31,124 bases of DNA, taken from contig JAYELY010000358.1 of the NCBI GenBank assembly GCA_034717795.1, positions 1-31,124 of the forward strand, in the 5' to 3' direction. The translations under genes and the position numbers were made by a program. Origin of the DNA: a candidate division WOR-3 bacterium. GTDB taxonomy: Bacteria; Hydrothermota; Tepidihabitantia; B3-TA06. This document shows, one piece after another, positions 26,903 through 31,124 of the stretch. Below the pieces are notes generated by a model. The model did no database searches and was not told where the DNA came from. It was given only the letters and a program-made list of their open reading frames with translations. The stretch's first letter is position 1, and each line of letters opens with the position of its first letter.

Positions 26903-27445
26903 ATGTTTGCAAGGAAAGAAAAATACGTGATTGAACGAGACGCACTGGTGGATGGACGTGTGCTTTCTCTGTTCGAGATGCAGCTTTTAAGGGGAAAGGT
27001 TTATCTTTCCCCCGAAGATGATGAGACCGCCTCGAGTATCGAGCGGCTGCGGAAATGCCCTGATGTAAAGATCGAGTTTCTACCCGGTCTTGATTCGAGT
27101 GAGAAGACGCTTTTCCTCGTCCGCTCCAAGAAGGCGGTGCTCCTCAAACTTTCCAAGGAACTCAACGCGGAGAAGCTTCGCAGGGAAGGGATGCGGGTGG
27201 TTGACATAGACGCACTATTCGAGCGTTTCGTGCCCCACTTCAAACCAGGAGACGAAACTGTGGTGCGTATAGTCAAGCGAGGTAAGGAAGCGGACGAGGG
27301 GGTTGGTTACTTCTCCAACGGGATAAAGGTTGTTGTTGAGGAGGGCGCAGAGCACATCAACCGCTACCTGGAGGTTGTTATCAAGGGGGTAGTGAATACG
27401 CCTGCCGGACGAATGGTGTTCGCCCGGCCCAAATACCGAACTTAA
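26903..27445 (+). CDS. Truncated, degenerate PIN/TRAM (YacL-like) protein lacking the N-terminal membrane domain
   Basis: C-terminal PGDE..V.IVKRGKEADEGVGY...G.KVVVE.G....FA TRAM motif; located after radA; PIN motif altered (ERDALVDGRV). Confidence 0.75.
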   Translation: MFARKEKYVIERDALVDGRVLSLFEMQLLRGKVYLSPEDDETASSIERLRKCPDVKIEFLPGLDSSEKTLFLVRSKKAVLLKLSKELNAEKLRREGMRVVDIDALFERFVPHFKPGDETVVRIVKRGKEADEGVGYFSNGIKVVVEEGAEHINRYLEVVIKGVVNTPAGRMVFARPKYRT

Positions 27446-27456
27446 GTCTTAAAAAC

Positions 27457-27481
27457 TGGCCGGGGTCACAGACCCCGGCCA
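27457..27481. terminator. Probable bidirectional intrinsic terminator
   Basis: tggccggggtc-aca-gaccccggcca (11-bp stem); tctcttttt follows on plus, gttttt follows on minus; lies between convergent genes. Confidence 0.8.
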
Positions 27482-27522
27482 ATCTCTTTTTCCCCGCGCC
27501 CCAAAGACATGGATGGGGAAGC

Positions 27523-27765
27523 CTACTTTATCTGGCTTGCCAGTTTTGACTTAAGTCTTGAGGCTTTATTGCGGTGAATTACGCCTTCGCGCACGGTCTT
27601 GTCGATCACGGCCTGCACCGCAGGATAAAGCTTTGTCTTATCCTTCTTGGTCGCTGCAGTGAACTTAGCGATCTCAGTCTTCAGACGAGACTTACGTGCA
27701 CGGTTGACCGCTCGTCTTTTGGCGTTCTGCCGCACGTTTTTCAATACGCTTTTCGTAACAGGCAT
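27523..27765 (-). CDS. rpsT: 30S ribosomal protein S20
   Basis: KS..K..RQN.KRR..NR..KSRLKT..., IDK....GVIHRNKASRLKSKL. Confidence 0.95.
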   Translation of the reverse strand: MPVTKSVLKNVRQNAKRRAVNRARKSRLKTEIAKFTAATKKDKTKLYPAVQAVIDKTVREGVIHRNKASRLKSKLASQIK

Positions 27766-27790
27766 TCTTCTCCTTTAAAGTTAGGCTATA

Positions 27791-27819
27791 ATTCTACTGA
27801 AGAAAGAGGGGTTTGTCAA
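27791..27819 (-). promoter_or_regulatory. rpsT promoter TTGACA-17-TAGAAT
   Basis: ttgaca 27819-27814 (overlaps the metG stop), tagaat 27796-27791. Confidence 0.75.
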
Positions 27820-29366
27820 TCCTCTAAGGATGCCTCGATCCGGGGGAAGAGTGCATCACCCTTGGTAACCTTCGTACCGTCCTTCAGCCTTCCCCACTTT
27901 ACCAGCTCCTTGTAGGGGATGGTATTATCCAGAGCATCAAGCCCCAGCTTGGCTCTCAACTTCTTGCAGGTCTCGGGCATGAACGGGGTAAGGAACACCG
28001 AAAGCATCCTTAAACTCTCCAGCAAGGCGTAAAGCACCCCGGTCAGCTCCTCGGTCTTCGTCTCTTTATTGAGCGTCCACGGTGCGGACTCCTCCACGAA
28101 CGCATTTGAAGCTGTAACAAGCTCCCAGATCTTCAATATTGCCTTGCGGAACTTGAAACCCTCCATCAGCTTTGGCAGCTCCTCGGCAATCTCGGCTGCC
28201 ACATCCCGAAGCTTACCTTCATACCCTTTCACCTTCTTTACGATTCCGTCCTGATACTGTTCGGTCATACCAAGGATTCTCGACACCAGATTGCCGAAAT
28301 CGTTGGCCAGATCCGAGTTTATCCGCTCCACCAGGAGCTCCCCACTGAAAGAAGAGTCCAGCCCGAAGCTCATCTCCCTTAAAAGGAAGTAGCGGAACGC
28401 CTCGAACCCGTATTTACGCTTCATATCCAAGGGTCTCACCACGTTACCCAGCGACTTCGACATCTTCGCCTCGTCCACCTGCCAGTAGCCGTGTACCCGC
28501 AGTCCCTTGTAAGGCCCTGCGCCCATCGAGCGGAGCATGGTGGGCCAGTACACCGCGTGAGGAATCAGGATGTCCTTGGCAATCAGGTGATAGGATACCG
28601 GCCAGTAGCGCTTGAAATCCTCTCCGTCAGGATAACCGATCGCGGTAAGGTAATTGATCAATGCATCGAACCACACATAGGTCACATAGTTCTCATCGAA
28701 CGGCAGCGGGATGCCCCAGGACAGCCGTTCCTTTGGTCTTGATATGCACAGATCACCCAGCGGCTCTTGAAGAAACGAAAGAACCTTGTTGCGGTGGCGC
28801 TCCGGCTCGATGAAGGAAGGGTTCTCCTTGATGTGTTTGATAAGCCAGTCCTGATATTTACTCATCTTGAAGAAGTAATTCTTCTCCGAGCGGTACTCTA
28901 AAGGCGTCTGATGATCAGGGCAGCGGCCGTCCACCGTCTCCTTCTCCGTATAAAATCTCTCGCAGCCTACGCAGTAGTAGCCGCCGTATTCTCCGAAGTA
29001 GATGTCGCCCTTATCGTATACCTTCTGCAGGATGTCCTGCACCACCTTTACGTGATCGGCGTCAGTAGTCCGGATGAACCGGTTGTAGGTGAAGCCCAGC
29101 TCTTCAAAAGTAGAGCGGAACATCCCGGCGATGCGGTCAACGTATTCTTTTGTCTGGACGCCTTCAGCTTTGGCCGCCTGCATTATTTTGTCGCCGTGCT
29201 CGTCGGTGCCGGTCAAAAAGTAGACGTCACAGCCGTACAAACGCCAGAACCGGGCCAGGGTGTCGGCCAGAATGGTGGTATACGTATGGCCGATGTGCGG
29301 CTCGGCGTTAACGTAGTAGATAGGCGTGGTTATGTAATAAGGCTCTTTCTGCAAGGGTTTCTTCAT
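27816..29366 (-). CDS. metG: Methionine--tRNA ligase (short form, no C-terminal tRNA-binding domain)
   Basis: YITTPIYYVN..PHIGH, TGTDEHG, CVGCE...CPDH knuckle, YVWFDALINY, KMSKS. Confidence 0.97.
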   Translation of the reverse strand: MKKPLQKEPYYITTPIYYVNAEPHIGHTYTTILADTLARFWRLYGCDVYFLTGTDEHGDKIMQAAKAEGVQTKEYVDRIAGMFRSTFEELGFTYNRFIRTTDADHVKVVQDILQKVYDKGDIYFGEYGGYYCVGCERFYTEKETVDGRCPDHQTPLEYRSEKNYFFKMSKYQDWLIKHIKENPSFIEPERHRNKVLSFLQEPLGDLCISRPKERLSWGIPLPFDENYVTYVWFDALINYLTAIGYPDGEDFKRYWPVSYHLIAKDILIPHAVYWPTMLRSMGAGPYKGLRVHGYWQVDEAKMSKSLGNVVRPLDMKRKYGFEAFRYFLLREMSFGLDSSFSGELLVERINSDLANDFGNLVSRILGMTEQYQDGIVKKVKGYEGKLRDVAAEIAEELPKLMEGFKFRKAILKIWELVTASNAFVEESAPWTLNKETKTEELTGVLYALLESLRMLSVFLTPFMPETCKKLRAKLGLDALDNTIPYKELVKWGRLKDGTKVTKGDALFPRIEASLED

Positions 29367-29371
29367 CCTTA

Positions 29372-29682
29372 AGTTTACGCAGATTGGGGCTTAAGGCAAG
29401 CCTTGGGACCCATCTTTCCCTTCATATTTGAACCCAACACGTCACCAGATGCCTCCCAAAAAACTCCCCAAAAGCTGGCCAAAAATTACCCAAAAGTTGG
29501 ACAACCTTACAAAAATAAGCTGGTCGAAAGATGGACAAAAGGGGGACAAAAGCAGGACACGCCAAAGAGATTATGCTGGTCAAAAACTGGTCGGAAGTTA
29601 CCCGAAAGCTGGACACGAGGAATGTATGCCGGGTTGGACGTAAAGGTGACGGGGCAAGCACTTCTTTATTGTCATTGCGAGG
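29372..29682. repeat. 311-bp direct repeat, copy 1 (contains the metG promoter TTGCCT-16-TAAACT on the minus strand and the 11-bp array)
   Basis: Matches 30644-30954 except 5 substitutions and two 11-bp indels by manual alignment; offset 1272 bp at both ends. Confidence 0.95.
29453..29619. repeat. Hierarchical 11-bp unit array, copy 1 (13 units in blocks of 5+4+4, separated by 12-bp spacers)
   Basis: Units start at 29453, 29464, 29475, 29486, 29497 | 29520, 29531, 29542, 29553 | 29576, 29587, 29598, 29609; consensus about CTGG(A/T/C)CAAAAG. Confidence 0.85.
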
Positions 29683-29793
29683 ACGGCAGACCGATGGGAT
29701 GCAGGACGAAGCAATCTCATACCTCTGAGTGAGAGCAATGAGATCGCCACCCTTCCCCGTTTCCTTTGGAGGCGGACGGTCGGTCGCAATGAC
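29671..29793. repeat. GTCATTGCGA...TCGCAATGAC palindromic (REP/RPE-like) element
   Basis: Perfect 10-bp terminal inverted repeat (29671-29680 / 29784-29793) and an inner gcaatctcat / atgagatcgc pair (29711-29720 / 29738-29747). Confidence 0.8.
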
Positions 29794-29839
29794 GGAGTGG
29801 GAGAGGTAAACCACATTATGTTTCAGGATGGGGTTGATT

Positions 29840-29890
29840 TGGAGTGCAACAACCGTGTTGTTGCTGCAATGACGTAGTCATTGCACTCCA
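29840..29890. other. 51-nt near-perfect three-way-junction (Y-shaped) palindrome
   Basis: tggag + t + [gcaacaac-cgt-gttgttgc] + [tgcaatgac-gta-gtcattgca] + ctcca. Confidence 0.75.
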
Positions 29891-29998
29891 TAGGCAATAC
29901 ACCGCTCAAACACTACAACAATCCCAAAAGGAGTTGAATGACCAAAGTTTACAGCCATTGTGTTGGAGCAAGCCTGGATTATTCTTGGGATAGCGGTG

Positions 29999-30340
29999 TT
30001 AAATCCGTTTCAGCATCTGTGTAATCAGGGGCTTCGTTTGAGGCAAATTCCTGGTTACTATCTCCCAGATAATACTTACGTCAATTCCAAAGTATTCGTG
30101 GATTACAATATTACGTAAGCCGATCATCCTTTTCCAAGGAATGTCAGGATACCCTTCTCTCACCTCTGGTGGTATGCCCTTTGAAGCTTCGCCGATAACT
30201 TCCAGGTTTCTTAGGACTGCATCTATTGCCATGTCGTTATCCTTGAAGACCTCGAAGGTCAGACCATGGGTGTAGCGTTCAACCTTGTCGATAGCTTCGG
30301 CTATCTCCTCGACAAGGATCTTGCAAGACCTTCCTTTCAC
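29999..30340 (-). CDS. hepT: HepT-like HEPN ribonuclease toxin (DUF86)
   Basis: DAVLRNLEVIGEA, PDIPWKRMIGLRNIVIHEYFGID (RX4HXY); GTGA overlap with the antitoxin. Confidence 0.9.
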   Translation of the reverse strand: MKGRSCKILVEEIAEAIDKVERYTHGLTFEVFKDNDMAIDAVLRNLEVIGEASKGIPPEVREGYPDIPWKRMIGLRNIVIHEYFGIDVSIIWEIVTRNLPQTKPLITQMLKRI

Positions 30341-30627
30341 GCGTAGCTTACCTCTTTCAGGATATTTCCCCTTAGCGAAGCTCGCAAGGCTTTAACCGTG
30401 ACGAGGTCCACATTCTGGCCCAGAATCTCTTCGAGGAACTCCTTCAGGTCAACAAACTCCCAGCCGATAGGTTGATTGAGTTCTACCAGTATATCCACGT
30501 CACTTGCCTGGGATTCCTCACCCTTGGCGTATGAGCCAAAAACCCCAATCTGGTTTACCTTGAACTTTTCCCTGAGAAGGGGTTTATGCTTCCTTAACGT
30601 CGCCTTTATCTCTTCGAGGGTTTTCAT
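30337..30627 (-). CDS. mntA: MntA-like minimal nucleotidyltransferase antitoxin
   Basis: IGVFGSYAKGEESQASDVDILV (GSX10DXD), VDLVT. Confidence 0.9.
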   Translation of the reverse strand: MKTLEEIKATLRKHKPLLREKFKVNQIGVFGSYAKGEESQASDVDILVELNQPIGWEFVDLKEFLEEILGQNVDLVTVKALRASLRGNILKEVSYA

Positions 30628-30643
30628 AACTTCACCTATGCTG

Positions 30644-30954
30644 AGTTTACGCAGATTGGGGCTTAAGGCAAGCCTTGGGACGCATCTTTCCCTTCATATT
30701 TGAACCCAACACGTCACCAGATGCCTCCCCAAAAGCTGGCCAAAAATTACCCAAAAGTTGGACAACCTTACAAAAATAAGCTGGTCAGAAGCTGGTCGAA
30801 AGATGGACAAAAGGGGGACAAAAGTAGGACATGCCAAAGAAATTATGCTGGTCAAAAACTGGTCAGAAGTTACCCGAAAGCTGGACACGAGGAATGTATG
30901 CCGGGTTGGACGTAAAGGTGACGGGGCAAGCACTTCTTTATTGTCATTGCGAGG
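30644..30954. repeat. 311-bp direct repeat, copy 2 (its promoter points into mntA-hepT; array at 30725-30891 in blocks of 4+5+4)
   Basis: Near-identical to 29372-29682; units start at 30725, 30736, 30747, 30758 | 30781, 30792, 30803, 30814, 30825 | 30848, 30859, 30870, 30881. Confidence 0.95.
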
Positions 30955-31051
30955 GTGTCGGAGACACCCGAAGCTCCGGAGGACGACGCTTGCGGAGTTC
31001 CGGAGGGCGAACGAAGGGAGCAATTTCATACGCCTGAGAGAATGCGATGAC
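30943..31051. repeat. Second, divergent GTCATTGCGA-family palindromic element with internal hairpins and a degenerate right arm
   Basis: gtcattgcga start; gggtgtc-gga-gacaccc and ctccgga...tccggag hairpins; gcaatttcat; ends in aatgcgatgac. Confidence 0.6.
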
Positions 31052-31053
31052 AT

Positions 31054-31124
31054 CCCTCACCCCATCCCTCTCCCGAAGGGAGAGGGGGTAATTCTCCTCG
31101 CCCTCTGGGAGAGGAGTTAGAGGT
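31054..31124. repeat. Pair of CCCTCACCCC..CCCTCTCCC-GGGAGAGGG-type REP hairpins (cut by the window end)
   Basis: ccctctccc-gaa-gggagaggg (31066-31086) and ctcctcgccc-tct-gggagaggag (31094-31116). Confidence 0.7.

Follow-up and report, generated by a model that had tools for sequence, protein, structure and literature searches.

Predicted toxin-antitoxin genes between two copies of the metG upstream region in a candidate division WOR-3 genome, probably a product of general recombination

How does a small toxin-antitoxin (TA) operon come to lie between two nearly identical copies of the region upstream of an essential tRNA synthetase gene, in a segment that encodes no enzyme to move it? The question is raised by contig JAYELY010000358.1, a stretch of 31,124 nucleotides from a candidate division WOR-3 bacterium (Candidatus Stahlbacteria), called the window here. 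It is all of contig C358 in a metagenome-assembled genome (MAG) of 369 contigs and 2.16 Mb, and it ends 170 bp past the second repeat copy. We favor the reading, with rather better than even confidence, that the locus is a recombination-prone TA islet at the metG promoter, shaped by homologous recombination and gene conversion with no dedicated recombinase. The form of the locus is real and recurring and is not a new class of mobile element; an earlier note on this DNA, made from the sequence alone, did not recognize the arrangement from any described class. Below, G000 is the window's own MAG and G001 to G009 are relatives (G001, G002, G004, and G005 from the same genus, G006 to G009 from other genera), C denotes contigs, and L denotes loci on public contigs. 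The features on which the argument turns are as follows.

27816-29366, minus strand: metG, methionyl-tRNA synthetase, 516 aa (Pfam PF09334, 2e-102)
29372-29682, minus strand: repeat copy 1, the metG control region, immediately 5' of metG (repeat finder and global alignment)
29999-30340, minus strand: hepT, HEPN RNase toxin, 113 aa (Pfam PF01934, 1.3e-31; RNIVIHEY, matching RX4HXY, at residues 76-83)
30337-30627, minus strand: mntA, nucleotidyltransferase antitoxin (Pfam PF01909, 1.2e-16; GSX10DXD at residues 31-45, GSYAKGEESQASDVD)
30644-30954, minus strand: repeat copy 2, a control region immediately 5' of mntA (repeat finder and global alignment)

The repeat finder gave a start-to-start offset of 1272 bp, and global alignment separated the copies, both 311 bp long, by 5 substitutions and two insertions or deletions (indels) of a whole 11-bp unit. 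The geometry described in the earlier note, including the bracketing of mntA-hepT, was confirmed in full, and so were its limits of identity, which opens at a minus-strand TAAACT (29372-29377 and 30644-30649) and closes after GTCATTGCGAGG. A 322-bp version of the region is still present in G001 and L105, and each window copy lacks a different single unit of its 11-bp array relative to that version. The equal length of the two copies is thus a coincidence of two independent one-unit losses. At the level of substitutions, copy 2 is 98.3% identical to copy 1 and 98.4% identical to the single copy in G001. Both window copies have one array haplotype in common and both G002 copies have another, which fits gene conversion or recent duplication within each genome.

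To which gene does the repeat belong? Homologues that match copy 1 at 94 to 97% substitution identity lie directly 5' of metG in G001, G002, G004, and G005; in G003 the metG upstream region is rearranged. Orthologues of metG itself were found in 10/10 family members searched. As judged from these alignments, the 311-mer is the native metG control region, conserved across the genus. Its flanks outside the array (29372-29452 and 29609-29670) are 97 to 100% identical across the same four relatives, and the metG coding sequences are about 78% identical. Two kinds of encoded product were considered and rejected. For a structured RNA or riboswitch leader, such as a T-box, there was no Rfam match; a search of 27000-31124 at an E value of ≤1 returned no known RNA family inside the repeats and two chance-level matches outside them, and both strands fold worse than shuffled sequences (z of +2.45 and +2.75). 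A coding role is contradicted by the 11-bp indels, which shift the frame of the long open reading frames (ORFs) between the copies, and by lengths in relatives that differ by non-multiples of 3. With no Rfam match, poor folding, and frames that are not kept, either constraint acts on this region at the DNA level or the region has recently been exchanged.

The distal ends of the copies, away from the genes that they precede, lie in short palindromic elements that resemble repetitive extragenic palindromic (REP) sequences.

29671-29770, no strand assigned: REP-like element with a short interior, at the distal end of copy 1 (sequence)
30943-31047, no strand assigned: REP-like element REP B, at the distal end of copy 2, with a second copy at C252:612-715 (sequence)
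31044-31124, no strand assigned: element N, REP-like, its last 71 nt equal to C252:235-305 (comparison with contig C252)

The GTCATTGCGAGG motif occurs 34 times in the genome against 0.26 expected. Both repeat copies end in one REP-like family, but the two members differ in their interiors, so the palindrome marks a REP insertion point and not, as in one of the two alternatives of the earlier note, the end of an element. The likeness to REP sequences and to bacterial interspersed mosaic elements (BIMEs) extends to the variable interiors and to their presence at the distal edge of both copies and in many intergenic regions. Here, however, they bound the duplicated segment and are not themselves the duplicated unit.

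A dispersed promoter-carrying element, akin to a miniature inverted-repeat transposable element (MITE) or a Correia element, might have landed before both genes with its end set by the REP palindrome. The array core is indeed dispersed, with about 35 arrays per genome, often beside promoters, and GTCATTGCGAGG is a dispersed REP-like motif. A BLAST search with the 311-mer told otherwise: the window genome holds two full-length copies, both at metG, while some 20 further matches span only the array part (query positions of approximately 87 to 247), and G001 to G005 hold one or two copies each, all linked to metG. Over all genomes searched, matches away from metG stay within query positions of approximately 83 to 268, again the arrays. 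The repeat finder detected no inverted repeat matching the ends of the 311-mer, which means no terminal inverted repeats, and the unique flanks are orthologous in TA-free relatives. We therefore give this proposal, which was one of two in the earlier note, almost no credence.

What has been inserted at this control region is, on its motifs, a type VII TA pair. The genes are neighbors with a 4-nt overlap, antitoxin first, and they encode the RX4HXY motif in the toxin and GSX10DXD in the antitoxin that define HepT/MntA systems (PMC7641770). The Shewanella oneidensis pair SO_3166/SO_3165 has the same adjacent and overlapping PF01909 and PF01934 genes, the same order, and both motifs (PMC7641770); compared with it, the window proteins are ordinary and the setting is what differs. 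Type VII toxins are neutralized by covalent modification (PMC7641770), for HepT an AMPylation by MntA, and a putative penalty for loss of the TA pair is for that reason less obvious. Unlike other type VII pairs, the cassette in the window, made up of a 16-nt leader, the two genes, and a 32-nt tail, has no promoter of its own, stands directly behind a copy of the metG promoter, and, as far as the contigs read show, is confined to the metG locus. The 1272-bp unit holds no convincing ORF besides the TA pair and hence no recombinase. Look-up of the exact MntA protein returned no record. The identical HepT protein is on at least 15 public contigs; all nine that were read carry it at this locus, with metG adjacent in eight.

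The junction between control region and cassette is precise.

29372-29399, minus strand: promoter-like site before metG, TTGCCT (29394-29399) and TAAACT (29372-29377) with a 16-nt spacer (sequence)
30644-30671, minus strand: the same promoter-like site in copy 2, before mntA (sequence)
30628-30643, minus strand: 16-nt mntA leader with AGGTGA, before the mntA ATG (sequence)

The earlier note had each repeat placing a promoter directly before a gene, and the same predicted, sigma70-like TTGCCT-16-TAAACT site does stand in both. The ATG of metG begins 5 nt past TAAACT and that of mntA 16 nt past it. The metG mRNA is probably leaderless, since other TTGACA-type/TAAACT promoters of this genome have an ATG 6 to 7 nt downstream. 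Outside the genus but within the family, only the promoter hexamers of the metG upstream region are kept, as TTGCCT or TTGATA, 16 to 17 nt, and TAAACT in G006 to G009. In every readable allele the left cassette junction reads TAAACT-(T/C)A-N-CATAGGTGAAGTT-ATG, that is, the -10 box, two bases, and then the leader. Copy 2 would accordingly drive mntA-hepT, and copy 1 would give the essential metG independent transcription. A consensus scan found no terminator between hepT and copy 1, so read-through from hepT into copy 1 is possible.

Comparison of alleles shows the locus in at least four forms. The two-copy form is found in the window, in G002 (SOJW01000059), and in L106 (JAUUXQ010000001, a single 138-kb contig); contig C48 of G002 has one full copy and part of a second. 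A TA-upstream form, in G001, has one 311-mer downstream of the TA pair and, upstream of it, element N with a short promoter (TTGATT-16-TAAACT); the same junction stands at the start of C252. A TA-between form (L105, L108, L109, and L112; L111 is probably a further case, its contig beginning 6 nt inside the repeat) has one 311-mer upstream of the TA pair and metG 27 to 73 nt after hepT, preceded by only about 20 nt of promoter core and a fortuitous TTGCTT from the cassette tail. The empty form is that of G004: a single control region precedes metG, the next conserved gene lies about 105 bp away, and a DNA search of the whole genome found no TA pair. The contig of G005 breaks at the repeat edge. 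Between alleles the duplicated segment ranges from about 20 bp through a diverged stretch of about 110 bp to 311 bp at 98% identity.

Other sequences share the site. Locus L113, on a contig of DRR463593, has an extra 320-aa gene (664-1626) between hepT and the metG control region; it encodes C-terminal hydrophobic segments and has no Pfam family on record. G002 and L106 keep its last 55 codons or so, and compared with L113 their copy 1 has been truncated by a deletion at a 9-nt microhomology. The window itself carries a trace of another gene.

29834-29975, plus strand: decayed remnant of a hicB-like gene, convergent on hepT, with an operator-like palindrome, a promoter remnant, and the first 12 or so codons (inverted repeat I2)

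This remnant of an antitoxin gene lies 3' of hepT. In G001 its counterpart and an intact hicB-like gene, which stands upstream of mntA, frame the cassette in direct repeat (L107:3412-3586 and the gene after it), and the 5' region of that intact gene is 84 to 95% identical to the window remnant. Six nucleotides of it are kept in the TA-between alleles, which we accordingly read as deletion derivatives. The earlier note had looked to other cargo and to empty sites in relatives as signs of a mobile insert. Other cargo exists, in the 320-aa gene of L113 and the intact hicB-like gene of G001. The empty site is a partial match: G004 is indeed a TA-free, single-copy relative, but beyond its repeat it has neither REP B nor N, the REP elements that flank the window 311-mer, and so is not an exact excision product.

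Could the assembler have made the duplication by fusing strain variants from short metagenomic reads into a chimera, and so doubling one real copy? The MAG is fragmented and the contig ends shortly after copy 2. Moreover, contig C252, the continuation beyond the window, begins with 127 nt exactly equal to window positions 30441-30567, inside mntA, which indicates that variants were coassembled at this very spot. The two copies nevertheless differ at 7 places, which makes them resolvable at k=127, and both unique junctions lie inside one contig. The two-copy layout also recurs in the independent assemblies of G002 and L106, so the duplication is not a misassembly. We regard such an artefact as very improbable, and the earlier note's argument against it stands.

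Past the overlap, C252 has two single-nucleotide polymorphisms (SNPs), the start of mntA, and the short promoter with N directly abutting. Since it shares mntA with the window and then differs upstream, the sample holds both bracketed and G001-type junctions. A tandem duplication of the whole TA unit was considered and rejected: copy 2 is followed by REP B and then N, where a tandem repeat would have the hepT 3' spacer, and the bin contained no further contig with hepT. Element N and the short promoter align at 77/92 positions with the metG upstream region of G003, which puts mntA behind a diverged metG-type promoter even in the G001 form.

The cassette also appears to have traveled. Across 11 sequences its 677 nt have 13 variable sites and at least 98.7% identity, where the adjacent metG is only 78 to 90% identical, a difference from which we conclude that the cassette spreads between species. 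From REP B through the control region and TA genes, the window and L105 are 97.4% identical, against 81.9% in the adjacent metG. On the other side, the first gene beyond the islet, of the PEMT/ICMT family (C252:~987-1874), is 96% identical to its counterparts in G001 and G002, and the next 2 kb only 78 to 80%. These contrasts with the flanks argue that homologous recombination has carried a block of some 3 kb, with the cassette inside it, between lineages. The nine contigs read hold the cassette at no locus other than metG, and with the exact HepT confined to that site in all of them it appears to be locus-bound.

A vehicle of the Campbell type was the earlier note's other idea: a circle with one control region, mntA-hepT, and the 3' spacer would enter and leave by a single crossover and travel between genomes. 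Part of this stood. In the window, G002, and L106 the insert lies between direct repeats, G004 is a single-copy relative free of the TA pair, the cassette is near-identical across species, and a recombinase would not be needed. The truncated and intact hicB-like 5' repeats of G001 are, besides, what one crossover with a 5' gene fragment classically produces. As in Campbell-type insertion duplications and repeat-flanked islets, the repeats are direct repeats of the target, a one-crossover deletion would restore a single copy, and there is no transposase. Against these points, resident and incoming sequence do not form a mosaic in the window copies, whose 5 substitutions are scattered and which have the same array haplotype. 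The one-sided alleles (G001; L105, L108, L109, and L112) require further events, as does the change between the N/REP B/copy 2 and N/short promoter junctions, and, in a departure from Campbell-type insertion duplications, the repeat ranges from about 20 to 311 bp between alleles. The exact HepT at metG alone, in the contigs read, is a further point against a traveling vehicle, and G004 is not an exact excision product. We consider this vehicle unlikely and rank it second, after general homologous and illegitimate recombination.

In every allele with a readable junction, the promoterless cassette sits directly behind the -10 box of a predicted metG-type promoter, and metG keeps a second promoter copy. 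On the reading that we rank first, these are the marks of a recombination-prone islet. Cassette and flanks would be exchanged between related species by homologous recombination, and duplicated control regions would be created, homogenized by gene conversion, or deleted at the promoter core, at REP elements, or at microhomologies. Array units would come and go by slippage. The breakpoints do fall in the roughly 20 nt around the -10 box that both promoters have in common, in REP-like elements, and in microhomologies. What we infer from these alleles is the mode of recombination and selection to keep a full promoter before metG.

Several observations weigh against this account. The 13 SNPs of the cassette are too few to root the succession of alleles, and their patterns were not informative on whether the window is a recombinant of one-sided alleles. 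The conservation of the control-region flanks, which includes the TA-free G004, is not obviously explained by exchange alone and may reflect strong functional constraint. Promoter activity of the TTGCCT-16-TAAACT sites is a prediction, and a consensus promoter scan left them below its threshold (8/12) and did not call them. Finally, the two alternative junctions before mntA in this assembly may reflect either variation among strains or a second TA copy.

The allele series, from empty through one-sided and minimally duplicated to fully bracketed, shows a TA pair lodging at the promoter of an essential gene. To pass from species to species it would need nothing beyond homologous recombination, and each time the promoter of that essential gene would be duplicated. 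For an uncultured phylum it adds a noncoding region far more conserved than the essential metG that it adjoins, together with phased, dispersed 11-bp arrays that were found in only two genera.

These arrays make up the core of the control region.

29453-29619, plus strand: array of 11-bp A-tract units (CTGGWCAAAAG and CTMCCCAAAAG) in three blocks, in copy 1 (repeat analysis)
30725-30891, plus strand: the corresponding array of copy 2; relative to copy 1, block 1 is shorter by one unit and block 2 longer by one (alignment)

The array core belongs to a genome-wide repeat family, and we attribute the whole-unit indels between the copies to slippage for that reason. Arrays of the CTGGWCAAAAG unit number about 35 in the window genome and are intergenic (for example, C8:3680-3779, C112:635-744, and C362:5460-5558). 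Many have a conserved 22-nt spacer in the middle (TGGACACCAGACCGGGCAAAG) and end, on the far side, in an inverted version with T-tracts. One side of an array is usually a conserved box of two ACTCGTCA motifs 21 nt apart (C176:2024-2060; C250, upstream of 10009; window 29425-29452), and the other side consists of further short repeats; the metG control region includes a box related to the dispersed ACTCGTCAC motif. Several boxes are followed by a TTGACA-17-TATAAT promoter and a gene start within 20 to 110 nt. By crude ORF calls, the nearest gene on the box side presents its start in 20 arrays and its end in 14. No functional theme emerged among the genes adjacent to arrays, whose neighbors include DUF3467, DUF2089 helix-turn-helix, tetratricopeptide repeat, and extracytoplasmic function sigma factor proteins.

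Within the GTDB species collection, a pattern of three units from the repeat core was found in Candidatus Stahlbacteria (WOR-3) MAGs only. A two-unit pattern occurs 5 to 70 times per genome in both bearing genera (6/6 and 2/2 genomes), and 53 further genomes of the class gave no match; a reversed control pattern scored 0 everywhere. None of the listed papers on Stahlbacteria is concerned with repeats in its title or abstract.

A-tracts spaced about one helical turn apart bend DNA, and those of the arrays recur at about that interval. The control region and its arrays might thus constitute a protein-bound or strongly curved promoter module of two Stahlbacteria genera, with the cassette as a "promoter hitch-hiker" that would spread between species without a recombinase of its own, carrying a copy of the control region of an essential gene or recombining with one, in and out in Campbell fashion, and that would be lost only at a risk to metG expression; we hold this combined proposal to be quite unlikely. 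The nearest parallel in form is parC of plasmid R1, in which two sets of five 11-bp iterons, bound by ParR and intrinsically curved, flank a promoter (PMC2241845). Like parC, the arrays consist of 11-bp direct repeats in blocks of three to five units beside a promoter, with A-tracts phased at about one turn. In contrast to parC, they are chromosomal, recur about 35 times per genome, and stand before unrelated genes or behind the ends of genes. No partner resembling ParR or ParM was identified for the arrays, and loci this numerous, with unrelated neighbors, are not the single locus of a partition site. The comparison is an analogy of form only.

Other short repeats are abundant in the window genome. 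They include runs of AATCTGCGTAATCTGCGGAT-type heptamers, often just upstream of a -35 box, runs of CAGATTG/AAGATTG and of ACAGCTC, and GGGGTCCCCG...GGGG hairpins (examples in G000 at C67:679-760, C106:3489-3560, and C201:2124-2260). The spacer of the metG promoter resembles the AATCTGCGTAATCTGCGGAT-type heptamer runs.

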